Source: a virus. From it: DNA of 64,000 bases. The notes under the pieces were generated by a model. The model was not told where the DNA came from. It was given only the letters and a program-made list of their open reading frames with translations, and made no database searches. The stretch is taken from positions 16,278 to 80,277 of the IMG/VR virus record IMGVR_UViG_3300021185_002646. One strand, 5' to 3'. The position numbers and the translations under genes are program-made. How positions within the stretch are numbered: the first letter of the stretch is position 1; each line of letters opens with the position of its first letter. Below are positions 1,547-55,327 of the stretch, piece after piece.

Positions 1547-1622
1547 GCCGGTATAGCTCAGTTGGTAGAGCATCTGATTTGTAATCAGGAGGTCGAGTGT
1601 TCAAATCATTCTGCCGGCACCA
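1547..1622 (+). tRNA. tRNA-Thr(TGT)
   Basis: Cloverleaf, anticodon loop TTTGTAA, encoded CCA. Confidence 0.95.
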
Positions 1623-1809
1623 TTAACAAGAATAGTTTGCTAACTTTACAGCACGAATACGCCCTAGGTTAGGTAATCAAAGGACAAAGTACAGGACACA
1701 TAAAATATAATAAATAAAAAGACAAACGAGAGAGAGGCACAGGACGCCCAACTGTAACAAGTTGTAATCGGAAATACAAATAGACAGAATAAAAAAGAAA
1801 GATATATAA

Positions 1810-2025
1810 ATGAAACTTAGAAATGAGATGTTAAAAACAGCTATACAACACGCAGACGGTGAAATTCAATTACATAAAATGAATGTTGAAGTATATTTAA
1901 CTAATCCTGCAGGTATAGGCGAACACAGTGATGTAATGGAAGCTATTCAAGTTGAACTTGATAAGATGTCTACTGCACACGATCGCAAAGAAATGCTGAC
2001 TAAGTATTTTAAATTGGGGGATTAG
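1810..2025 (+). CDS. Hypothetical phage protein; stop codon lies inside tRNA-Ala
   Basis: 71 aa ORF with NPAGIGEHSD motif. Confidence 0.75.
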   Translation: MKLRNEMLKTAIQHADGEIQLHKMNVEVYLTNPAGIGEHSDVMEAIQVELDKMSTAHDRKEMLTKYFKLGD

Positions 2026-2091
2026 CTCAGCTGGGAGAGCGTCTGGTTTGCATCCAGAAGGTCAGCAGTTCGATCCTGCTATCCTCCACCA
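2016..2091 (+). tRNA. tRNA-Ala(TGC)
   Basis: Cloverleaf, G3:U70 pair, loop TTTGCAT, CCA. Confidence 0.95.
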
Positions 2092-2097
2092 AAATTT

Positions 2098-2121
2098 AAC
2101 CCAGCCTTAGTGCTGGGTTTT
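2098..2121 (+). terminator. Rho-independent terminator
   Basis: AACCCAGC-loop-GCTGGGTT followed by T. Confidence 0.7.
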
Positions 2122-2141
2122 CACTAACTAGGAAACAATTC

Positions 2142-3008
2142 ATGGACATAGCAATTTACCAAAATGACACAGGAAGTGCACCAGCAATACATTGGTGGCT
2201 TTCACAAGAAACTAATATAGGACCAGAAGTATATGATTTTAATACAGGTTACTGTACGCCAAGTGGGCATCACGTAGGTGCTATTGTCATTGAGAATGAA
2301 CAATCAAAACATCATAATTTACATACACAATCGATTCAATTATTAGATAACTCAACAAACGGTATTATTGATGTTATGTCTCCGTTTGATGATATAAGAA
2401 AAGATTATGAGCATCTTGTATGGAGTAATTATAGTAGCAACCTAAGTAATCCAGATAATATTATTAAAGCAGATAAGACTATTTTAGTTGATAATAGTCC
2501 CGAAGAACAATTATTTTTTTATATTAGCCAATATGCATTTTCTTGGTTGGAATCTATAGAAGATATAGCACAACAAACAAATAATTGGGCAAATGAACAT
2601 AATATTGAAAACTGGAAAGAAGTATGGGATAAAAAGTATGCTAAAAACTTTGAACAATCATTTGTTGATGGAAAACTAAAATATATGTGGCAACTTAATT
2701 TTGCACATCATGATTTAATGGATCAACTTGCAAAAGGTAATGATGATATAACTTTAGTTGACGCAGATGACCATGCTAGATTATTTGATAAACAAAAAGA
2801 AGATTTCACAGATACATTATTTGCATATGCTAACTCAGAAGCAGATCATTTAATTGTAGGTGACGATTGGTTTGAAAATTATGAAAGTATAATTGATTAT
2901 TTAGAAATAGAAAGTTCTTTTAGATTAAAAAAGTTTAGAATTGATTATATGAAATTGTATAAACGCAAAAAGCAATTATACATAGATACATTTTCAAAAT
3001 ACCTATGA
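2142..3008 (+). CDS. Hypothetical protein, paralog of the next gene
   Basis: Shares IAIYQ, APAIHWWL, VWSNY and GKL.YMWQLNFAH with 3005..3922. Confidence 0.8.
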   Translation: MDIAIYQNDTGSAPAIHWWLSQETNIGPEVYDFNTGYCTPSGHHVGAIVIENEQSKHHNLHTQSIQLLDNSTNGIIDVMSPFDDIRKDYEHLVWSNYSSNLSNPDNIIKADKTILVDNSPEEQLFFYISQYAFSWLESIEDIAQQTNNWANEHNIENWKEVWDKKYAKNFEQSFVDGKLKYMWQLNFAHHDLMDQLAKGNDDITLVDADDHARLFDKQKEDFTDTLFAYANSEADHLIVGDDWFENYESIIDYLEIESSFRLKKFRIDYMKLYKRKKQLYIDTFSKYL

Positions 3009-3922
3009 ACATAGCAATATATCAAACTGTAAATGCACACGCACCAGCAATACATTGGTGGCTTGCACAAGATAAACGTTTTGGACCACAGTTGTACAAC
3101 GGATTAGAGCCACTTTGTAATGGTGATCAAATAGGAAGTATTGTACAAGAAATACGAGATGAAGATATTGATGCTGATTTATATAACATTCATCAAGAAA
3201 GTCTTAGAGAAATGGAAAATAAAGAAGCTGTAAATGGAATAGTTGATTGTACTTCTTCTTATTTTAATAGTATAAACAATTATGAATATCCAGTATGGAG
3301 TAATTATTTTGGTTGCACAAAATATCCTAATTCAGTACCTTTAAGTGATAAACTTTTATTTGCTAAGTCAACTATAAAAGATGATGCTATGTTTTATATA
3401 ACACAGTACGCATTTATTAAACTATCTATTGATGAAATCAACGATCATAGTAAAATATGGTGGGAAGATCATAAACTAATGGATGGCAAGGTGTTAGATA
3501 GTTGGAAGGAAATATGGTACAGAGATTATCATGATCAATGTATAGCAGACTTTCATAATGGTAAATTGCAATACATGTGGCAATTAAATTTTGCACATTG
3601 GGATTTGCATAATATGTTAGTAGAAAATAAAAGTAAATTTACGTTAGATTATTCAATAGAAAGATTGTTTAAGGAAAAACATAAAACTGATGATTTTAAT
3701 GCAGAGCAAAATGCAATAAAATTAATGACTGATAATACTATAGATCATTTGTTAGTTGATGTAGAATGGTTTAACAATACTGATGTTATACTTGATTATT
3801 TAGGTATTAAAAATAGCAAAGCATTAGATGATGCGGCATTACTATACAATGAGCGTTATAAAATTGTTTGTAAAGCCTACGAAGAATTATCTAATAAATA
3901 CTACAAAGGAATTATATTATGA
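3005..3922 (+). CDS. Hypothetical protein, paralog of the previous gene
   Basis: Same shared motifs; ATGA overlap. Confidence 0.8.
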   Translation: MNIAIYQTVNAHAPAIHWWLAQDKRFGPQLYNGLEPLCNGDQIGSIVQEIRDEDIDADLYNIHQESLREMENKEAVNGIVDCTSSYFNSINNYEYPVWSNYFGCTKYPNSVPLSDKLLFAKSTIKDDAMFYITQYAFIKLSIDEINDHSKIWWEDHKLMDGKVLDSWKEIWYRDYHDQCIADFHNGKLQYMWQLNFAHWDLHNMLVENKSKFTLDYSIERLFKEKHKTDDFNAEQNAIKLMTDNTIDHLLVDVEWFNNTDVILDYLGIKNSKALDDAALLYNERYKIVCKAYEELSNKYYKGIIL

Positions 3923-4401
3923 ATAGAAATATAGGTAGAGGTTTAATAGTATTAGGAATGTTAATGTTAGGCGTTCTTTTTGCAAATACAAGTTTGTCTG
4001 CAGAAAGAAAATCTACAGGAAAAGAAGTTGAAATGGTTGTTTACGACTATGAGGTAACTAGAGTAATTGACGGAGATACTGTAGCCTTTAGAGCAGACTT
4101 TTTGCCAGAGCCACTTAAACAAGAACTAAGCATTCGTGTTTATGGAGTTGACACACCCGAAAAGAGTTGGAGAGCAGAATGCGACTCTGAAGCAGCTTGG
4201 GGTGAACAAGCAAGTCAGTTTACAAAAGACCAATTAAATGGTGCAACAGTTATACAAGTAGCCATTTACAAGTGGGATAAGTTTGGTGGGCGAGTATTGG
4301 GTGATATTATTATTGATGGAAATAGCCTAAGACATATGCTTATTGAGAACGGATTCGCACGTGAGTATTATGGTGATAAAAAAGAATCTTGGTGTTCTTG
4401 A
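3919..4401 (+). CDS. Thermonuclease (SNase) family protein with signal peptide
   Basis: RVIDGDT, IRVYGVDTPE, DKFGGRVLG motifs; hydrophobic N-terminus. Confidence 0.85.
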   Translation: MNRNIGRGLIVLGMLMLGVLFANTSLSAERKSTGKEVEMVVYDYEVTRVIDGDTVAFRADFLPEPLKQELSIRVYGVDTPEKSWRAECDSEAAWGEQASQFTKDQLNGATVIQVAIYKWDKFGGRVLGDIIIDGNSLRHMLIENGFAREYYGDKKESWCS

Positions 4402-4426
4402 CAATTATCAAAAGTTAATATATAAT
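4398..4426 (+). promoter_or_regulatory. Consensus sigma70 promoter for the tRNA pair
   Basis: TTGACA-17-TATAAT. Confidence 0.85.
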
Positions 4427-4439
4427 AAGAACTAATTTA

Positions 4440-4516
4440 GGGGGTGTAGCTCAGTTGGTTAGAGCACCTGCCTGTCACGCAGGGGGCCGAGGGTTCGAGT
4501 CCCTTCACTCCCGCCA
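4440..4516 (+). tRNA. tRNA-Asp(GTC)
   Basis: Cloverleaf, loop CTGTCAC, GCCA end. Confidence 0.95.
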
Positions 4517-4519
4517 AAT

Positions 4520-4594
4520 GCACCGTTCGTCTATCGGTTAGGACACCGGGTTTTCATCCCGGCAAGAGGGGTTCGATTCCCCTACGGTGTACCA
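4520..4594 (+). tRNA. tRNA-Glu(TTC)
   Basis: Cloverleaf, loop TTTTCAT, CCA. Confidence 0.95.
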
Positions 4595-16142: not shown

Positions 16143-16592
16143 ATGAAAATTGATAATAGTAGTTATACAGTAACGCCCCCAGACCTTTATATGACAGAAC
16201 ATGGAATAAGTATTTTTATTTCAAGTACTAATAATGATTTAATTAATCCAGTAAAAGAATTATTTGAAAAGTTTATTGCAACAAGTGTTGTTTTTCTTGT
16301 TCAAAACAATAAAACAAATTCAGAGACATTACCATGGATGTGGAATGTATCTAAAACATGCGACTTTATGGTCATCGATGTTGATACGTGTGCATGGGAA
16401 GATATCATGGCAGGACTTTTAAAGTCAAGAGAAGAAGAAAATACAGTGCTATTTTACAGCGATAAATACAAGCGAAGAGAAACTGTAAAATTAATAAATG
16501 CTACAGGCACTAATCTAGTTGTTAGATCAATAGCTGATATTAACAATTATGTGAAGTTACAAATGAGTCCAGAATATTTTAATGACATCTAG
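16143..16592 (+). CDS. Hypothetical protein
   Basis: 149 aa ORF. Confidence 0.7.
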   Translation: MKIDNSSYTVTPPDLYMTEHGISIFISSTNNDLINPVKELFEKFIATSVVFLVQNNKTNSETLPWMWNVSKTCDFMVIDVDTCAWEDIMAGLLKSREEENTVLFYSDKYKRRETVKLINATGTNLVVRSIADINNYVKLQMSPEYFNDI

Positions 16593-21379: not shown

Positions 21380-22478
21380 TCAAGACATTAAACTAGACTA
21401 CAGTGACGTTTTAATTCGTCCAAAGCGTAGTACATTAAGTTCACGCAAACAAGTAAGACTTGAACGCAAGTTTAAATTTAGAAACAGCAGACATGAGTAC
21501 GAAGGTATTCCTATTATGGCTGCTAACATGGATGGTGTTGGAACATTTGAAATGGCAGATGAACTTGCACAACAAAATATATTTACATGTTTAGTAAAAA
21601 CATATTCAGTGGAAGAACTTGTAGATTTTTTTAACAATGATTATCCAGATAATAGAAGAACACAAAACATTGCTATGAGCATTGGTACCGGAACAATAGA
21701 CTTTGATAAGTTAGAAGCCGTGTATAATAAAGTAAGCAATAAACTAAAATATGTATGTATGGATATTGCAAATGGTTACAGTGATCACTTTGCACAACAT
21801 GTTAAAAAAGTTCGTAATGCATTTCCTAATTTAGTAATTATAGCAGGTAATGTAGTAACTGGAGAGATGACAGAGGAGTTAATTTTAAATGGAGCAGACA
21901 TCGTTAAAGTCGGAATTGGACCAGGAAGCGTGTGTACAACACGAATCCAAACAGGAGTCGGGTATCCGCAACTTAGTGCAGTCATTGAATGTGCAGATGC
22001 GGCACATGGACTTGGTGGACATATTATTGCTGATGGGGGCTGTAACTCTAGTGGTGATGTGGCTAAAGCATTTGCTGGCGGTGCCGATTATGTAATGCTA
22101 GGCGGTATGCTTGCAGGACACGATCAAGGTGGCGGCGAAGTTATTAGTAAGATGTATGCAACTAATGAATGGCTCACAGCAGAAAAACCTTTACTTGAAC
22201 AAAAACAGTTTGTGGCTTTTTACGGAATGAGTAGTGATGCAGCAAATACAAAACACTTTGGAGGACTAAAAGACTATCGTGCAAGCGAAGGACGAGAAGT
22301 ACTAGTTCCATACAGAGGTGCAGTACAGCACACCATACAAGCAATCTTAGGTGGGTTGCGTAGTACTTGTACATATGCAGGTGCAATGAAATTAAAACAA
22401 TTGAGCAAGTGTACAACATTCGTTCGTGTTAATAATCAATTTAATCGTACATACGAAAGTACAACAACAAAAATTTAA
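21369..22478 (+). CDS. guaC: GMP reductase
   Basis: [46 protein letters not shown]. Confidence 0.95.
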
Positions 22479-22599
22479 GCTATGTTTGTAATGCAGATCG
22501 GAATTGCATAAATAAAACGGCTAAAAACATTTATCTTAGATAAATAAAAGTGTATTAAGAATAGCACAACGTTGTGTTATTATTTTCATATACAAAGTA

Positions 22600-22770
22600 G
22601 TATAGAGCGACCTCGGCTCAGAAAAAAAGAGCGGCAGTTAGTGCCACGCTAACTGACTCTGGGAAAGACCAGGGCATAACCCATGCCTTACAAGCGATAC
22701 ATTATGAGGTATCGTGGTAGCAGCCAGGAGAGACTGGCAAAACGGATGCTTTCCCAAAAACATCCACATA
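22600..22770 (+). ncRNA. Candidate structured RNA (about seven hairpins, three long-range pairings) leading a small-protein operon
   Basis: GC-rich non-coding island with stems CAGTTAG/CTAACTG, CTCTGG/CCAGGG, GGCAT/ATGCC, CGATAC/GTATCG, GCCAG/CTGGC, GGATG/CATCC. Confidence 0.65.
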
Positions 22771-22790
22771 AAATATAAACGGAGAATAAA

Positions 22791-22985
22791 ATGACTACGA
22801 CATTTTTTAATGCATGGTCAAGGTTGTTCAACGGGCACCGTCGAAGTGTGGCCTATAGCAAAAACCTTATGACATATGCAAAAACTGAATATGGTAATGA
22901 TTGGCTATATGCCTACACCTATATGTTAGAACATGATGGCCAAGCACCAAAGTCTTGGCATACAAAGAAGGTAACAATAAAATGA
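22791..22985 (+). CDS. Small protein (YAKTEYGNDW motif)
   Basis: GGAG SD, 64 aa. Confidence 0.75.
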   Translation: MTTTFFNAWSRLFNGHRRSVAYSKNLMTYAKTEYGNDWLYAYTYMLEHDGQAPKSWHTKKVTIK

Positions 22986-23173
22986 CAACAACATTAATAT
23001 ATAAACAAACATGCGAAGTTTGTGAAAAGATTAAAAACGCAACTCTAACAGTGCTATTGGCACTTTGGGCATTTGGTGAATCATGTGGACGTGCAAGAGC
23101 GGCTGCACAGTTACATCGTGATGGGTTTCATGAAGAAGCAAAAAGTTTATACATGGATAATAAAAATGATTAA
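22982..23173 (+). CDS. Small protein (GRARAAAQL motif)
   Basis: Overlapping start; 63 aa. Confidence 0.7.
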   Translation: MTTTLIYKQTCEVCEKIKNATLTVLLALWAFGESCGRARAAAQLHRDGFHEEAKSLYMDNKND

Positions 23174-23351
23174 TACTATAACAAACAAATTAGGCTGGTT
23201 AAAACGTGCATATAGTCGCACTCAAAGTAGAAAACAAACTGAAAAGGCATTATCAGATTTAACTGATTTTGAATTGAATGATATTGGATTATGCAGAGGC
23301 GATATTAGATCAGTAGCACGTGGCGAAAAAGTTTATAGAAAGACATACTAA
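23166..23351 (+). CDS. DUF1127 (YjiS-like) small protein
   Basis: RKQTEKALSDLTDFELNDIGLCRGDI matches the DUF1127 consensus L..L.D..L.DIGL.R.DI. Confidence 0.85.
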   Translation: MINTITNKLGWLKRAYSRTQSRKQTEKALSDLTDFELNDIGLCRGDIRSVARGEKVYRKTY

Positions 23352-23420
23352 ATGTGGCCTTATACTGAAGAAGAATTAGACTTTATTAATAAGTAGAGTT
23401 TTAATCGTATAAATAGCTGT

Positions 23421-24398
23421 ATGAGTAAAGTACATCTATTATCAGAATTAATAACACGTTTGCAGAGTTTTGACACACAAGTTGATAAACTAGAACTCTT
23501 GCAGACGTATCGAAAAGAACCTATATTTAAACGAATAATTACTATTGCATATAATCCATGGATAGATTTTGAAATGCAAGATTTCACTCCAAGACGCATG
23601 GGTAAGCAGTTTGGTATGGGACTAACTAAGTTCTTACATATTTTAACAGATATTATTGATGAAAAATATGATGAAAGAGAAAAGAACTTTTCTTGTCAAA
23701 TGGCAATGAATCATATAGACGAACGTGATGCTGCACTATTTGTTAGTTTGTTAAGACAAGATTTAGATCTAGGACTAGAGCCTGAAACAATTAACAAAGT
23801 ATGGCCTGGATTAATTATGGTGTATCCACTAAGTACACCAACAGTAGCAGATTATAAAACATTTCACAAATATCCAGCAGCAGTACAACCAATCAGTAGA
23901 GGTCTACGAGTTAATGTAATTGTTCATAAAGGATTAGTTAGTTACAAAGATAAAGAAGGTAACAATATTGAAGGTTGGAATATGTACGATGAGCAGTTTA
24001 TTAATTTAGCACAAAACAATAGCACAGTATTTGATGGCCATGCAGTTGTGGCAAATGGAATAACTATTGTAGAAACTGACAATCAAAAAGTATTAGAAGC
24101 AGACCCAGAAAATGTTAAGTTTGTATTTTGGGATATTATACGTTATGATGGATTTGTAAAAGGTGAAGATTCACGTATAGGTTATAACTGGCGACATAAT
24201 GGACTTGAGCATATGATTATGCTTGCATTTGATAAAAACAAAACACCTTGTTATGATATTGTAAAAGCTGACCTTGTTGGAAGTGATGAACAGTTAGAAT
24301 TAACTGTTAAAAAGTTTGCAAATAAATGTGTTATAAAACGTTTAGATGGAACATGGATACGTGGAAACGATCCAACGCAAGTTATTTACGAGTCTTAA
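23421..24398 (+). CDS. Degenerate T4-type DNA ligase paralog (no catalytic Lys, no OB domain)
   Basis: Ligase-like N-terminal domain (AYNP, DL.LG...TINKVWPGLI); motif I reads QPISRGLR; VFDGH, FWDII. Confidence 0.65.
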   Translation: MSKVHLLSELITRLQSFDTQVDKLELLQTYRKEPIFKRIITIAYNPWIDFEMQDFTPRRMGKQFGMGLTKFLHILTDIIDEKYDEREKNFSCQMAMNHIDERDAALFVSLLRQDLDLGLEPETINKVWPGLIMVYPLSTPTVADYKTFHKYPAAVQPISRGLRVNVIVHKGLVSYKDKEGNNIEGWNMYDEQFINLAQNNSTVFDGHAVVANGITIVETDNQKVLEADPENVKFVFWDIIRYDGFVKGEDSRIGYNWRHNGLEHMIMLAFDKNKTPCYDIVKADLVGSDEQLELTVKKFANKCVIKRLDGTWIRGNDPTQVIYES

Positions 24399-26607: not shown

Positions 26608-27018
26608 ATGGCATATAGCGAAAAAGTGCTAGACCATTACAATAATCCAAGAAATGTAGGTAAATTTGACCCCAATGAAGAGAATATCGGAACTGGTATG
26701 GTAGGTGCACCTGCATGTGGAGATGTAATGCGTTTACAAATAAAAGTAGATGACAATGGCATCATAGAAGATGCAAAGTTTAAAACATATGGTTGTGGAA
26801 GTGCAATTGCTAGTTCAAGTATGGTAACAACTATGCTTAAAGGTATGACACTAGACGAAGCACAAGAAATTAAAAATACAACAATTGTTGAAGAACTAGC
26901 ATTACCACCAGTAAAAATTCACTGTAGCGTATTGGCAGAAGATGCCATTAAAGCCGCAGTAAGAGATTACGGCGATAAAAAACAAAAAATAAACGCAAAA
27001 CCGGTTGACATAACTTAG
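26608..27018 (+). CDS. iscU: Fe-S cluster scaffold IscU
   Basis: YSEKVLDHY.NPRNVG, APACGDVM, GCGSAIAS, LPPVKIHCS. Confidence 0.97.
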   Translation: MAYSEKVLDHYNNPRNVGKFDPNEENIGTGMVGAPACGDVMRLQIKVDDNGIIEDAKFKTYGCGSAIASSSMVTTMLKGMTLDEAQEIKNTTIVEELALPPVKIHCSVLAEDAIKAAVRDYGDKKQKINAKPVDIT

Positions 27019-27039
27019 TTTTGTGTTATCATAAATAAC

Positions 27040-27339
27040 ATGTAACGTTGAAACTTGACTCAACGCATTTCAGGACCTCGGGGCAGTACCGAGCAGCTCC
27101 ACCATAAACACATCTAGATGAGATATTGAATCACTGCTTGGGTGTGCTTATGATGGGGCTGAAACAGGTTCGACTGGAAGGTTAGTAGGTAAGCGGAGTT
27201 ATCGGGATCTAAGCACCGTTATCGCGAAGAAAATTTATAATTGCAAACGCAAATTATGAGCCAGAAATGGCATTAGCGGCTTAGTTTTAAGCACGTAGGG
27301 GTTTTGTAAGTTGAGCCTGGCAACAGAATCAACTTACAA
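27040..27339 (+). ncRNA. ssrA: Circularly permuted two-piece tmRNA; tag ANANYEPEMALAA (27243-27284)
   Basis: Acceptor piece ...CAGCTCCACCA ends 27104; intervening segment; coding piece starts GGGGCTGAAACAGGTTCGAC at 27155 (G3:U70); tag ORF ending LAA; terminal hairpin containing CCTGGCAACAG. 5' boundary approximate. Confidence 0.92.
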
Positions 27340-28066: not shown

Positions 28067-28143
28067 GGACCCGTAGCTCAGTTGGATAGAGCGTTGGTTT
28101 GCGGAACCAAAGGCCAGGAGTTCGAATCTCTTCGGGTCCGCCA
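28067..28143 (+). tRNA. tRNA-Arg(GCG)
   Basis: Cloverleaf, TTGGT-TTGCGGA-ACCAA anticodon arm, GCCA end. Confidence 0.9.
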
Positions 28144-28353
28144 AAATAATTTTACAATTCTGTAAAAAAGGTATTGACTTAGATATCCGTTTATCGTATA
28201 ATGTATGCATTGTTGTTGGAAATAGTCAATTTCATAAACATAGTATATTACGATTTAGCATAACAACTAAACAGTATATATAAGATAAAAAATAGTTGAC
28301 AGTAATGTGACTATTGTGTTATACTAATAACACTAAAACAAGGAAGAGCGGAT

Positions 28354-28584
28354 ATGATTAGTAGTAGACAAATTGTGGAAATCATCAAAGATGAAATGAA
28401 CAGAGAAGAAAACAGCCAAGAGATCCGTATGGCACTGAAAAAAGTTAAGGAACGTATTGAAATTTTGGAAGAAATTGATTATGTGAATACTGTTAAATCG
28501 CCTATGTATAATGAAGAACAGGTGAAGCAACAAAGTAAAGCAAAAGCAAAAGCAACTGAAGAATTTGAGAAATTTTTTAAATAA
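28354..28584 (+). CDS. Hypothetical protein
   Basis: 76 aa ORF after a sigma70 promoter at 28296. Confidence 0.7.
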   Translation: MISSRQIVEIIKDEMNREENSQEIRMALKKVKERIEILEEIDYVNTVKSPMYNEEQVKQQSKAKAKATEEFEKFFK

Positions 28585-28754
28585 TGACAGAGTTTAGCGA
28601 GATAACTAATAAAATTGAAGTATCACAAGAATTAATAGAGGTGTTCAAAAGCCGTATCAAGCCAAGTGCTACTGGACACCTTTATACTACAATTAGTACG
28701 CTCGAACAATATATAACAGAACTTGAAAAACAACTAGACGCAATAGAGAAGTAA
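28584..28754 (+). CDS. Small hypothetical protein (56 aa), not in ORF track
   Basis: TAATG overlap; ...PSATGHLYTTISTLE... Confidence 0.6.
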   Translation: MTEFSEITNKIEVSQELIEVFKSRIKPSATGHLYTTISTLEQYITELEKQLDAIEK

Positions 28755-28755
28755 A

Positions 28756-29061
28756 ATGCGATTCAAAGACATAAAAATGTTAGACCAAGGTAAGCCTCAC
28801 GTAAATGGTAAGCAGGCAATTATTGACTTTGGCAAATATAAACTAAGCATAATCTGTAATGACATGTCATATGGTGGCAAATCAGGCATGTACGAAGTAG
28901 GTGTGTTTAAAGACTGGGGAACAGAAGAAGAAAAACTATGTGAACTCCCAGGTATCACAACAGAAGGCGACACAGTCGCTGGATATCTAACTGCATCAAA
29001 TCTAGATGCAATACTCCAAAAAATGTATTTAATTACAGCAGAGGAACCAATACAAATTTAA
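28756..29061 (+). CDS. Conserved phage hypothetical protein
   Basis: SYGGKSGMYEVGVF, DTVAGYL. Confidence 0.7.
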   Translation: MRFKDIKMLDQGKPHVNGKQAIIDFGKYKLSIICNDMSYGGKSGMYEVGVFKDWGTEEEKLCELPGITTEGDTVAGYLTASNLDAILQKMYLITAEEPIQI

Positions 29062-29070
29062 ACAGTTTTG

Positions 29071-29147
29071 GTCTCCTTAGCTCAGCTGGATAGAGCAACG
29101 GCCTTCTAAGCCGTAGGTCGAGGGTTCGAATCCTTCAGGGGACGCCA
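29071..29147 (+). tRNA. tRNA-Arg(TCT)
   Basis: Loop CTTCTAA, CCA. Confidence 0.95.
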
Positions 29148-29149
29148 AT

Positions 29150-29234
29150 GCTCGCATGATGGAATTGGTAGACATAACAGACTTAAAATCTGTGGCCATA
29201 TGGCGTCCCGGTTCGAGTCCGGGTGCGAGTACCA
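29150..29234 (+). tRNA. tRNA-Leu(TAA)
   Basis: Loop CTTAAAA, long variable arm, CCA. Confidence 0.95.
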
Positions 29235-29239
29235 AATAT

Positions 29240-29314
29240 ATAGGTGTAGTGTTAATGGTAGCACGTTGGATTCCAAATCCAAAAGTCAGGGTTCAAATCC
29301 TTGCACCTATGCCA
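29240..29314 (+). tRNA. tRNA-Trp(CCA)
   Basis: Loop TTCCAAA, GCCA end. Confidence 0.93.
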
Positions 29315-29319
29315 AATAT

Positions 29320-29396
29320 ACTCTTGTAGCATAGCGGTCTAATGCCACCCGCTCATAACGGGTCGATCACAGGTTCGAATCCTGTCGGGAGTACCA
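29320..29396 (+). tRNA. tRNA with CAT anticodon (Ile2 or elongator Met, not initiator)
   Basis: ACCCG-CTCATAA-CGGGT; paired 1:72; lacks the initiator GGG/CCC stem. Confidence 0.88.
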
Positions 29397-29411
29397 AGAA
29401 AGAAAAAGGAA

Positions 29412-29486
29412 TGGAAAGTAGCATAACGGTAATGCAGTTGTTTTTGGTACAAAAGATTATAGGTTCGAATCCTATCTTTCCAGCCA
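29412..29486 (+). tRNA. tRNA-Gln(TTG)
   Basis: U1:A72, loop TTTTGGT, GCCA end. Confidence 0.88.
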
Positions 29487-52297: not shown

Positions 52298-55200
52298 ATG
52301 AGAATAACTGAAGTAGACAAAGGTTTAACACAAAGTGAACTGGATCAATTAGAAGTTTTTGCAGATAGATTATTTGCGAAAGTAGGTATTGATGTAGAGT
52401 TTACCCGTCACTTCTTAGATCGTGTAAATGACGAACGCAATGTAAAACAAATCACAGCAAGCGAACTCACGAGATTATTTAAACAAGAATACAAACGTTG
52501 GGGCAAACCTATTGCACAAATGGGCCCAGACGCAGAAGCAGTACTAAAAGACTTAGCAACAGACGTAAACATACCATTTGCTTTACGTTGGGATAAAGAA
52601 AACAACGAATTAGATCTTATCGCTAAAACAGTAATGCGTAAGAAAAATTTTAAAACATCTAACAAAGAGTTTGAAATACAATCAGCTGATTACTCGTTAG
52701 ATAATATACAACACAAAAAAGTATTTGAATCAATAAAACAACTTAACGAAGCAGGCCCGGCAGCATTGGCAGTACCAGTTGGTATTGCGGCATGGAATGC
52801 CTATGTATATTCCAGATATGCTCAAGCAGCCTGGTTTACCGCAAAATTTACTGCAACAACAGCCGCAGCATATATTGTTGCTAATAAATCTGATTTTGGC
52901 TGGCTTGAACGAAAGATGGCTTCATCGGCTATTCTTGCATATCAACTATGGGACAAAGTTAGAGGCGTACAAGATATGAGCAGTGTTCAGTGGAGAGACA
53001 CTAATGCATCAGCAATGGCAGCCGGACAACAAGGAGCTGAAAATCCATTAGGTCCTAGGCCAACTGCAGATATGAACGGTGATCCATATGGTATTATAAA
53101 TGCTAGACAACAAGTAGCCGCAGGACAGTTAGGTGCACAAGCACGTTTAGATTTAGCGTTAGCAGATTTGGCTGCTGATCAAAAAGCATGGGATATTGAA
53201 TCTAATAAAAATCAAGACAAGGACGCAAGCAACGGCGCAATGGCATCAGGTCAAACAGGTGCTACTTTAACACAATTAACATTAGATGCTAGTGAACAAT
53301 TAAATGGAGAGCTAGCCGCAGGTGTAAATGAATTAACTGCAAATGCAAATATAGAAACTGAAATAGATAACGAAGAATTAGATAAAATAGCAATAGCAAC
53401 TGCTGATGCTCAAAATTTAGTAAGTGATAATAATCTTATAAAACTAGCAACTACAATAACACAAGCAAAACAAAACGATGATAGTGATGCACAACTTATT
53501 TCATTAGCAACTAACATTGCAACAGCCCAACAGGCAGCAGACAAAGTAACTGCACAAAATACAGCCAGTGATGCTAAACTAATTGCACTTGGACAACAAG
53601 TAGCACAACAACAAGCAGATAAGTTAGCAACAGAATTAAGTGATGCAAAATTAATTGCACTTGGACAACAAGTAGCACAACAACAGTCAGATGCTAGAGC
53701 AACAGAATTAAGTGATGCAAAATTAATTGCACTTGGACAACAAGTAGCACAACAAAAAGCAAATGCGGCTGCAAATGCAGTCAGTGATGCTAAACTAATT
53801 GCACTTGGACAACAAGTAGCACAACAACAAGCAGATGCTAAAGCAACTGCACAAAATACAGCCAGTGATGCTAAACTAATTGCACTTGGACAACAAGTAG
53901 CACAACAAAAAATAGATACACAGAATGCAACCAGTGATGCTAAACTAATTGCACTTGGACAACAAGTAGCACAACAACAAGCAGATGCTAAAGCAACTGC
54001 ACAAAATACAGCCAGTGATGCTAAACTAATTGCACTTGGACAAGCATATGCAGATGCTAAATCAGATGCTAAAGCAACTGCACAAAACCAGGCAAGTGAT
54101 GCCAAACTAATTGCGTTAGCAAAAGCAGTAAGTGATGTAAATGATGTTGAACTTAATGTTCCAGCAGATGATGGCATAGGAAAAGACATAGATATTACAA
54201 TACCAGACACAGGCACTATTACAAGACCTGATGCACTTGATTTACCAGGTGCAGGAACAACAACTGGTGGCATAGATACAACTGGTGCTACAGCACAAGG
54301 AAATGCAGCGGCGGCGGCAGCGGCGGCACTAGCAACGGCAAAAGAAAAAGCAATTGCAACTGCTAAAGCAAATACTAAAAATAATAACACCGGTAAAAAG
54401 AAAACTAAGAAATTTGATTGGGGATTCGGAGATGGTGATTATTGGGATACAGATCTATATAGATGGCAACAAAAATATGGAACATTTGAAAATCAAAACC
54501 TAATTAAAAAATATTTTATGATTAATGAAGGTGGAGCAATGCCAGGCGTTGGTGCTATTCATATTGATGAGATTACTCCAACATTACAAGCATTAGAAAA
54601 GTCAATAGGTGTTGACTTAATGAACAACACATTGGGTAGTGTAGGTAAAAGACAATTCAGTGGAGACATTGATGTAGCACTACAAATACAACCAGAAGAA
54701 TTACCAGCATTTATAGAAGAACTTAAAAAGAATCCACTAGTACTAGACATTGCTAAAAGCAGTGTTATTATGACAAAAGTTAAAATTATGGACTTTGATC
54801 AATCTAAGTCAGACGGGAGACCTCGTACAGGATTTGTACAAGTAGACTTTATGCCAGGCGACCCAGGTTGGATGAAAACTTATTATCACTCACCAAGTGA
54901 AACAGAATCAAAATACAAAGGCGTATATCGTAACATTATGATTGCTACATTGGCAGCAGTACACAACAGAGATCAAAGTGATGCTAAATTAGATGACGGT
55001 AGAGCTATGGAAGAAAGACGCTTTATGTGGAGTCCAACTGAAGGATTGTTGCGTGTACAACGTACACCTGTTCCTAAGAAAAGTGGCGAAGGTTACACTA
55101 AAAAGAATAAAAATGAAACAATAGACGGTCCTTGGAAACAACCAGATGAGATTGCAACACAACTAGGTCTAGACAGTGGAAAAGATTTAAACAGTTTTGA

Positions 55201-55327
55201 ATCATTACTAGCCGCAGTTAAAAAGAATTGGACCAAAGAAAAATTACAATATGTTATAGATGGATTCAAGCAAAACAATGTTGTACAAGACATTGGCGTG
55301 CCTGAGGAATTAGACGATGTTAATTAA
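52298..55327 (+). CDS. Polyprotein: HFLDR domain + hydrophobic/repeat region + YWDTDL motif + Pol-beta-type nucleotidyltransferase
   Basis: C-terminal LGSVGK...SGDIDV...VQVDFM; SDAKLIALGQQ repeats; begins MRITE. Confidence 0.75.
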   Translation: MRITEVDKGLTQSELDQLEVFADRLFAKVGIDVEFTRHFLDRVNDERNVKQITASELTRLFKQEYKRWGKPIAQMGPDAEAVLKDLATDVNIPFALRWDKENNELDLIAKTVMRKKNFKTSNKEFEIQSADYSLDNIQHKKVFESIKQLNEAGPAALAVPVGIAAWNAYVYSRYAQAAWFTAKFTATTAAAYIVANKSDFGWLERKMASSAILAYQLWDKVRGVQDMSSVQWRDTNASAMAAGQQGAENPLGPRPTADMNGDPYGIINARQQVAAGQLGAQARLDLALADLAADQKAWDIESNKNQDKDASNGAMASGQTGATLTQLTLDASEQLNGELAAGVNELTANANIETEIDNEELDKIAIATADAQNLVSDNNLIKLATTITQAKQNDDSDAQLISLATNIATAQQAADKVTAQNTASDAKLIALGQQVAQQQADKLATELSDAKLIALGQQVAQQQSDARATELSDAKLIALGQQVAQQKANAAANAVSDAKLIALGQQVAQQQADAKATAQNTASDAKLIALGQQVAQQKIDTQNATSDAKLIALGQQVAQQQADAKATAQNTASDAKLIALGQAYADAKSDAKATAQNQASDAKLIALAKAVSDVNDVELNVPADDGIGKDIDITIPDTGTITRPDALDLPGAGTTTGGIDTTGATAQGNAAAAAAAALATAKEKAIATAKANTKNNNTGKKKTKKFDWGFGDGDYWDTDLYRWQQKYGTFENQNLIKKYFMINEGGAMPGVGAIHIDEITPTLQALEKSIGVDLMNNTLGSVGKRQFSGDIDVALQIQPEELPAFIEELKKNPLVLDIAKSSVIMTKVKIMDFDQSKSDGRPRTGFVQVDFMPGDPGWMKTYYHSPSETESKYKGVYRNIMIATLAAVHNRDQSDAKLDDGRAMEERRFMWSPTEGLLRVQRTPVPKKSGEGYTKKNKNETIDGPWKQPDEIATQLGLDSGKDLNSFESLLAAVKKNWTKEKLQYVIDGFKQNNVVQDIGVPEELDDVN
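53567..54120 (+). repeat. In-frame tandem repeat SDAKLIALGQQVAQQ (8 copies, last two partial) with variable linkers
   Basis: AGTGATGC.AAA.TAATTGCACTTGGACAACAAGTAGCACAACAA repeated. Confidence 0.92.

Follow-up and report, generated by a model that had tools for sequence, protein, structure and literature searches.

A modular leader RNA family in front of microprotein operons of uncultured marine phages

Introduction

What is the long non-coding stretch that stands between a phage late promoter and three small open reading frames (ORFs), and what could it do there? The question is raised by the IMG/VR virus record IMGVR_UViG_3300021185_002646. We analysed its positions 16,278 to 80,277, a stretch of 64,000 nucleotides (nt) that we call the window and whose numbering is used throughout. 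The record is 80,277 bp long and 23% complete according to CheckV, so the implied genome is roughly 350 kb. In the window a GMP-reductase gene ends at 22478 and is followed by a 312-nt gap without a credible ORF, up to the first of the small ORFs (ORF1). This gap holds a GC-rich non-coding leader of ~240 nt (22550-22790). An earlier note on this DNA, made from the letters of the sequence, had described here a structured RNA with three long-range pairings in front of a small operon, and had read it as a riboswitch-like leader or a small RNA-protein module acquired by the phage. We find that 22550-22790 is a real, conserved and folded leader that belongs to an uncatalogued, modular RNA family. 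We suggest that it serves as a protein-binding leader.

Structured RNAs that are conserved across hundreds of phage genomes are rare. The last gene of the operon encodes a DUF1127 protein, and bacterial loci with such genes offer a comparison. In the CIN1 loci of Alphaproteobacteria the cuckoo, CcsR and NfeR RNAs lie in the 5' or 3' untranslated region (UTR) of DUF1127 genes, for example ccaF1-CcsR1-4 of Rhodobacter sphaeroides and NfeR-SMc02051/52 of Sinorhizobium (PMC8034643). The DUF1127 protein CcaF1 of Rhodobacter binds RNA and promotes the RNase E maturation of such RNAs (PMC8034643).

A conserved and folded RNA family

The stretch folds strongly, and does so on one strand. The + strand of 22590-22795 reaches -58.9 kcal/mol (z = -5.07), with none of 200 shuffles as good, and the - strand of the same region gives z = -2.0. 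GC content is 0.50-0.51 within 22600-22750 as against 0.24-0.30 in the flanks, in keeping with the GC-rich non-coding island behind a late promoter that had been noticed earlier. In close relatives, which were retrieved via ORF1 or via DUF1127 searches, the non-coding stretch is 93-97% identical, and ORF1 of the same loci is 70-91% identical. We judge the leader to be non-coding because indels of 1 and 2 nt in these relatives disrupt its sole internal ORF. Distant loci carry the same modules as the window RNA.

The covariation in the family is strong. A covariance model of the main class, R1, was built from 31 sequences and recovered 83 of 97 sources. In the main-class alignment 93.3% of cells pair, and both sides change at 19 of 30 pairs (361 cells), values that were matched by none of 500 shuffles. 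When the partners are slid by 1-3 columns as a control, pairing falls to 30-43%. Most of the signal comes from helices 2, 3 and 4 of the model. G-U pairs are retained in the family, for example 50 at one helix-3 pair, and these together with the strand-asymmetric fold argue for selection on RNA rather than DNA. Thus, the collection of homologs, a check that the earlier note had proposed, gives stems that are both conserved and covarying.

The most characteristic element is a hairpin with a NANAGA hexaloop closed by G-C. We counted 182 of these in the 118 RNAs of the family, versus 5 in shuffles, and found them on 27 different 4-bp stems. The loops observed are GAUAGA, AAAAGA, GAAAGA, CAAAGA and GAGAGA; each RNA has 1-4 of these hairpins, often with UGAC directly before them, and in some relatives the hairpin forms a 19-nt tandem unit (x2.9 in locus L025). 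The family has a common plan: late promoter, 5' module, one to four hexaloop hairpins, a hairpin with a C/U-rich loop, an unstructured spacer, and the Shine-Dalgarno site with the start codon. The 5' module is either a pseudoknot with an A-rich third loop or, in most members, a plain hairpin with a CA-rich linker. A further hairpin, H2, is optional. The shortest members, 90 nt long, do without it and are made up of a 5' module, a GAAAGA hairpin, a second NANAGA hairpin and the terminal hairpin. The loop of this terminal hairpin is C/U-rich in every member examined, reading CUUUCCUC or CUUCCCUC in the family, and most members have the 22-mer GGUAUUGCUUUCCUCAAGCAUCC as their terminal hairpin.

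This commonest form occurs in at least 120 IMG/VR contigs. Among 185,579 species genomes it was met in three contigs only, all of them metagenome bins, and neither the RNA (blastn) nor ORF1 (tblastn) was found in 50,697 GenBank phage records. The family was met only in uncultured marine phage contigs, several of them on records of 170-335 kb. The suggestion that the phage had acquired the module is not borne out, since the RNA and ORF1 are missing from cellular genomes apart from those three bin contigs (L210, L211 and L212). The last of these, PBPT01000016.1, comes from a bin labelled Candidatus Neomarinimicrobiota. At 335,231 bp it is close to the size implied for the window phage, and this contig may be the complete genome of a giant phage that ended up in a bacterial bin.

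Rfam 15 holds no matching family, either for the window at gathering score or for 22400-23400 at E ≤ 10, in keeping with the earlier remark that the RNA was not recognised as any riboswitch class. Eight diverse family loci gave nothing relevant in Rfam at E ≤ 1, ARAGORN found nothing at the leader, and in the literature we found no paper that ties DUF1127 to a phage RNA motif.

Architecture of the leader in the window

All coordinates in the earlier note proved correct on recheck, and the parts of the leader, all on the + strand, can now be described from 5' to 3'. The leader follows a T4-type late promoter, GATAAATA at 22539-22546 (ATAAATA from 22540), which agrees with the T4-type late box TATAAATA at seven of eight positions. 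In related loci a NTAAATA box stands upstream of the RNA in 115 of 116 cases (ATAAATA in 107), and a GTG is kept 4 nt downstream of it. This conserved GTG, at 22550-22552 in the window, probably marks the region where the transcript starts. In sequence, the promoter has the features of its class, namely a box of the TATAAATA type a few bases before the putative transcript start.

Two variable 5' hairpins come next. One is the near-perfect palindrome ATAGCACAAC/GTTGTGTTAT at 22561-22580, which had been reported before and contains one G-U pair; the other is ATAC-AAAGTA-GTAT at 22590-22603, in whose stem an A-U pair is replaced by G-C in relatives (GC 7, AU 3). Other members have 5' hairpins of unrelated sequence in place of these two. 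At 22605-22634 the RNA is predicted to form an H-type pseudoknot. Its first stem (S1) joins GAGC (22605-08) with GCUC (22616-19), its second stem (S2) joins the loop CCUC (22611-14) with GAG-CG (22629-33), and its third loop, AGAAAAAAA at 22620-22628, is A-rich. In 25 distinct sequences 96.9% of cells are paired, with compensatory changes at three of nine pairs (G-C/A-U in S1; C-G/U-A/A-U and U-A/C-G in S2), and the sample for S2 was collected by a pattern that left both S2 strands unconstrained. We regard this pseudoknot as the probable 5' module of the window, with modest backing from covariation.

The pseudoknot is followed by a hairpin, CAGUUAG-UGCCACG-CUAACUG (22635-22655), that occurs in the window clade only and is precisely missing from L002 and from all members outside this clade. 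The signature hairpin of the family, H1, lies at 22657-22674 (core 22659-22672) and has a CUGG/CCAG stem with the hexaloop GAAAGA closed by G-C. It is joined by H2, GGCAU-AACCC-AUGCC (22673-22687), in which all five pairs covary and 96.9% of cells are paired (79 distinct sequences). The conserved linker UUACAAG (22688-22694) leads to a second insert, the hairpin GCGAUAC-AUUAUGAG-GUAUCGU followed by GGUAGCAG (22694-22722), which belongs to a sub-lineage and is missing from most of the family. Its stem covaries as well: GAUAC/GUAUC becomes GACAC/GUGUC in L008 and L002, and GGUAC/GUACC in L105, L143 and L253.

The last NANAGA hairpin, GCCAG-GAGAGA-CUGGC, occupies 22723-22738 (core CCAG/CTGG, 22724-22737). 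Its equivalent in the main-class model is helix 4, where all four pairs covary and 99.7% of cells are paired, and L002 has CCGG/CCGG as the stem. This hairpin and H1 are the two purine-loop hairpins that the first reading of the sequence had picked out, CCAG-GAGAGA-CTGG and CTGG-GAAAGA-CCAG. The terminal hairpin GGAUG-CUUUCCCAAAAA-CAUCC (22744-22765) carries a pyrimidine-rich loop that resembles an anti-Shine-Dalgarno sequence. The Shine-Dalgarno site GGAGAA (22781-22786) and the ATG of ORF1 (22791-22793) follow; in the family the start codon sits 8-31 nt past the terminal hairpin. No terminator was found on the + strand between the RNA and ORF1, and the window is free of tandem repeats.

The window has all the parts that define the family, that is, the promoter, the NANAGA hairpins, the C/U-loop hairpin and the DUF1127 cassette within ~30 nt, between 22539 and 23351. 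In addition, a profile made from 21 members of the pseudoknot class, none of them in the window clade, gave a sole match, at 22605-22701 (E = 2.7e-12), in which 22635-22655 appears as an insertion.

Some wider roles for these elements were considered and rejected. A regulon of NANAGA hairpins elsewhere in the window is one of them: only the two hairpins of the leader and a weak 4-bp case at 52989 were found, with 1.4 expected. This third G-[NANAGA]-C hairpin, AGTG-GAGAGA-CACT at 52989-53002, lies inside a 1009-aa ORF (52298-55327) and may well be there by chance, given the expected number. A private ribosome-binding tag for the terminal loop was rejected as well, GGGAAAG and GGAAAG being upstream of none of 78 genes; the loop is only generically complementary to the AGGAA-type ribosome sites of the phage.

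The three long-range pairings

The earlier note had listed three long-range complementarities, some of which would compete with local stems as in a switch or a pseudoknotted fold. All three are present in the sequence. As a conserved fold of the family they are unsupported, since none covaries and their lengths are at or near chance. The 5-mer ACCTC (22610-14)/GAGGT (22706-10) has P ~0.68 and the 7-mer TGCCACG (22642-48)/CGTGGTA (22713-19), with one G-U, has P ~0.25, both chance values; the perfect 8-mer TGGGAAAG (22660-67)/CTTTCCCA (22749-56) is borderline at P ~0.07 within the sequence.

The first two pairings were rejected from the comparison of relatives. TGCCACG is the loop of the hairpin that is confined to the window clade and that L002 precisely lacks. 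Its supposed partner CGTGGTA lies in the sub-lineage insert, and CGTGG is also found in L102, L105, L143 and L253, all of which are without TGCCACG. GAGGT falls in the loop of an insert, which is different in each of the other lineages, and outside the window clade there is no GAGG loop. ACCTC supplies the 5' strand of S2, with GAG-CG at 22629-33 as its covariation-backed partner in place of the GAGGT that had been named.

The third, GGGAAAG/CUUUCCC, is the sole serious candidate. RNAalifold on the window clade prefers it over the two local hairpins. Within the clade, however, the pairing shows no variation, and about half of all family members are unable to adopt it, because they have GAUAGA-type loops together with an unchanged CUUUCCUC; no compensating change is seen. 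We therefore treat GGGAAAG/CUUUCCC as an alternative fold that is possibly specific to the clade, and not as a conserved structure. Two other partners were also discarded. The linker AAGYGAU is complementary to the 5' half of the terminal hairpin in the main class and, as judged by eye, not to other terminal stems. The terminal loop might also have paired with the 3' strand of the pseudoknot, but this strand covaries with the loop of the pseudoknot instead.

The microprotein cassette

Three small ORFs follow the RNA, overlapping one another as had been noted before. ORF1 (22791-22985, 64 aa) is a member of what we call the 'AKTEYGNDW' family and has no match in Pfam, PHROG or the ESM Atlas and no named relative; its relatives fall into 428 clusters (90% clustering), all unnamed and all metagenomic. 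An AlphaFold2 model of ORF1 has two helices (pLDDT 68.6), and neither this model nor the searches pointed to a function. ORF2 (22982-23173, 63 aa), whose start overlaps the ORF1 stop (ATGA), is of the 'GRARAAxxL..G(F/Y)HxEAK' type; it matches nothing in Pfam or PHROG, and its type recurs in related loci. ORF3 (23166-23351, 61 aa) overlaps the end of ORF2 by 8 nt and is a DUF1127 protein (Pfam PF06568, E = 1.5e-9), as had been recognised from its sequence. DUF1127 proteins like ORF3 were found in 25 related loci.

The association of the RNA with this cassette is close. When the RNAs are anchored on the terminal hairpin, an ORF1 homolog lies 8-31 nt downstream in 86 of 88 unique RNAs, and 110 of 118 unique loci have a gene of the DUF1127/ORF2 type downstream of the RNA on the same strand. 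Together with the covariation, this supports the earlier proposal of an undescribed structured RNA leading an operon that ends in DUF1127. In 31 pseudoknot-class loci, which were picked by RNA pattern alone and not by their genes, an ORF1-like gene comes first in 17, DUF1127 in 10 and DUF3563 in 4; a DUF1127 gene therefore stands directly behind the RNA in 10 of these 31 loci. In this shuffling cassette of microproteins the RNA is thus what stays constant, often with DUF1127 fused directly to it.

Other small proteins recur in the cassette. DUF3563 microproteins are present in 36 of 118 loci, with Pfam E-values down to 2e-9, for example after ORF1 in L024 (3069-3246), L058, L236 and L251; no paper connecting DUF3563 to DUF1127 was found in the literature. 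Another family, of 44 aa (MFKRFMKLMEYR...), is present in 35 related loci. Cassette proteins that are otherwise unrelated have C-terminal tails in common (L021, L051, L111, L119, L125, L212, L216, L218 and L238): '...NL(K/R)GWV' ends ORF1-type and DUF1127-type proteins alike in different loci, and '...KEVA' ends many ORF1s. An N-terminal helix like that of ORF1, 'LVSMFG', heads some DUF3563-type proteins (L247, L251). These shared ends suggest that N- and C-terminal modules have been shuffled among the microproteins.

Discussion

Where hairpins are iterated, with a sharply conserved loop on stems that are free to vary, the RNA is usually one that binds a protein. The conserved loops of this family stand on varying stems, and we therefore favour a protein-binding leader over a riboswitch. 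With a probability of about 60%, in our estimate, 22550-22790 is a structured, protein-binding 5' leader of a late-transcribed microprotein operon in marine T4-type phages. The iterated hexaloop hairpins would be the sites for an RNA-binding protein. The most economical candidate binder would be one of the small basic proteins of the cassette itself, because RNA binding is known for the DUF1127 protein CcaF1 of Rhodobacter. The RNA-protein complex could set the translation or the stability of the operon messenger RNA (mRNA). The complex might also set free a stable leader RNA with a pyrimidine-rich loop that is able to base-pair with ribosome-binding sites of the AGGA type.

A comparable arrangement is known from T4. 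The leader of T4 gene 32 has a 5' pseudoknot and is an autoregulatory translational operator, and operons of ribosomal proteins are controlled likewise. The window leader resembles it in having an H-type pseudoknot at the 5' end, in standing before a ribosome-binding site and in having an operon product as the proposed binder. However, the two are not homologous, and the window has iterated hexaloop hairpins where T4 has an unstructured tract for cooperative binding.

Several results weigh against a protein-binding leader, or at least do not help it. The number of hexaloop hairpins does not follow the number of DUF1127-type genes (rho = -0.10, p = 0.36), which rules out one binding site per DUF1127-type protein. 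No covariation-backed pairing that hides the Shine-Dalgarno site was found. The loop UUUCC can pair with GGAGA (5 bp, one G-U), and this is true of any AGGA-type site. At the locus no processing site or terminator that would delimit a separate small RNA was found. The main-class model R1 does not match the window at E ≤ 0.01. This is because the window carries a different module set, and we therefore assign the window RNA to the family by the pseudoknot-H1-H2 profile and by the module order and operon that it has in common with the other members. As for expression, six metatranscriptome runs contain 49-85% of sampled words from the stretch, and in four of the six there are contigs from 22692, in the 3' half of the RNA, through ORF1-3, which in two of these runs extend into the next gene; these data are assembled contigs, possibly with some DNA among them, and they speak for presence and contiguity rather than for strand, level or the position of 5' ends. 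K-mer depth, which is far higher in the core than in the flanks and almost nil upstream of the promoter, was not used as evidence for abundance or a 5' end, because core unitigs are common to many strains and contigs give no levels.

The main competing explanation is that a small RNA acting in trans is made from the leader and works in the manner of cuckoo, CcsR and NfeR. It would be cut from the mRNA with the help of the DUF1127 protein, and two exposed loops, CCUC in the pseudoknot and CUUUCC in the terminal hairpin, would base-pair with ribosome-binding sites of the AGGA type in mRNAs of the host or the phage. In Sinorhizobium it is indeed the 5' UTR of a DUF1127 gene that gives rise to cuckoo RNAs, whose processing by RNase E is promoted by CcaF1 (PMC8034643). 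The likeness extends further: in both cases a multi-hairpin RNA lies in the UTR of a DUF1127 gene, on the same strand and adjacent to it (23166-23351 in the window), with a 5' UTR position and small ORFs as in Sinorhizobium; the hairpin loops are pyrimidine-rich and anti-Shine-Dalgarno-like; and RNA and protein travel as a module. The C/U-rich terminal loop is kept throughout the family, AGGAA and AAGGA are the commonest ribosome-site words of the phage's genes, and the RNA stays constant while its first gene is swapped among three protein families. On the other hand, cuckoo RNAs (Rfam ar14, RSs0680) show no sequence or covariance-model similarity to the window RNA. They require at least two CCUCCUCCC loops, and these are missing from the window, where the loops are GACCUCG (in the pseudoknot), GAAAGA, GAGAGA and CUUUCCCAAAAA; there is one CUUUCC(C/U) loop, and the dominant loops are purine-rich NANAGA. 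The phage family also differs from CIN1 in its pseudoknot or other 5' module, its T4-type late promoter, its occurrence in phages and its first gene, which is usually not DUF1127 but ORF1. Moreover, the pseudoknot loop is paired with covariation support and hence not free, there is no private target tag, and no terminator or processing evidence was found. The phage RNA thus parallels the cuckoo/CcsR-DUF1127 loci and is not a member of the cuckoo family, and we consider it unlikely that it is a small-RNA precursor of that kind.

A small-molecule riboswitch, akin to one of the two readings in the earlier note, is a good deal less probable. Here the 30-nt H-type pseudoknot would be the sensor, since its 4-bp stem, its loop pairing with a 3' segment and its A-rich linker of 8-9 nt are like those of the preQ1-I and SAM-II/SAM-V aptamers, and the GGGAAAG/CUUUCCC helix would be the switch. 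The pseudoknot is conserved with some covariation, and the preference of RNAalifold for the long-range helix in the window clade means that two folds compete energetically. However, most of the family has an unrelated hairpin with a CA-rich linker instead of the pseudoknot, so the module is dispensable; with one to four hairpins and an optional H2 there is no single aptamer architecture. The long-range helix fails in about half of the family, where GAUAGA loops go uncompensated, and the other alternative pairings, read by eye without a formal count, are not kept where the terminal hairpin differs. No preQ1, SAM or other riboswitch model in Rfam matches, there is no supported expression platform, and the downstream genes are not metabolic. 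The interchangeable 5' module, the variable hairpins and the absence of a covarying alternative pairing make a riboswitch improbable. We are just as sceptical of a decoy that would titrate a host RNA-binding protein late in infection, in the style of CsrB/RsmZ or CrcZ. Its appeal lies in the repeated short hairpins with conserved loops, whose number varies and which form tandem 19-nt units in some members, features that are shared with CsrB/RsmZ sponges and with ToxI. But NANAGA loops, many of them without GGA (AAAAGA, CAAAGA, CAAAG), are not CsrA sites, and the RNA is always fused to the microprotein operon, with no separate transcription unit and terminator of its own. ToxI differs too: its units are about 34-36 nt and those in the relatives are 19-20 nt, and the ToxN-like nuclease (~170 aa) of a type III toxin-antitoxin system is lacking downstream, where the genes encode 61-64 aa in the window and 50-90 aa in the family. 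Finally, the stretch might be a DNA-level element (an origin, a recombination site or repeats bound by a protein) or a GC-rich spacer that arose by chance, but inverted repeats are all that would favour this. Compensation in which G-U pairs take part makes sense only in RNA, the folding signal is strand-asymmetric, the element has a fixed place between promoter and start codon, and the stretch is present in RNA libraries. This last explanation is close to refuted.

A bolder version of the protein-binding leader is also conceivable, though we hold it to be doubtful. The leader and the cassette proteins would together be a phage-borne ribonucleoprotein, in which the DUF1127 protein or ORF1 reads the G-[NANAGA]-C hairpins as a new recognition code, and late in infection the complex or the processed leader may redirect how the host degrades RNA or initiates translation. 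If this were true, it would provide the first defined RNA operator for DUF1127 proteins and a widespread regulatory ribonucleoprotein of marine giant phages.

The family is of interest in its own right. It is present in hundreds of phage fragments yet missing from Rfam 15, to which it could be submitted as it is. It ties an RNA to DUF1127 and DUF3563, two protein families that have tens of thousands of members and for which hardly any mechanism is known. The G-NANAGA-C hairpin, with its many natural stem variants, is a ready-made candidate RNA operator, and proteins of 60 aa are easily made. If the pair works like the cuckoo RNAs and their DUF1127 proteins, then giant marine phages carry an RNA-protein regulator of their own, and it would be a simple system for learning what DUF1127 proteins recognise.

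Neighbouring features

The exact late box TATAAATA occurs four times in the 64,000-nt window, where 12 +/- 3.6 are expected, and all four copies are on the + strand (12887, 13514, 23408 and 58295). The copy at 23408 lies directly upstream of a ligase-like gene that starts at 23421. This 325-aa ORF (23421-24398), right behind the cassette, matches a PHROG for ATP-dependent DNA ligase (E = 1.2e-20), and no Pfam ligase domain in it is above threshold. The same fragment carries an alpha-type permuted two-piece transfer-messenger RNA (26984-27338) with the tag ANANYEPEMALAA, as well as ten transfer RNA genes (1547-4594 and 28067-29486).

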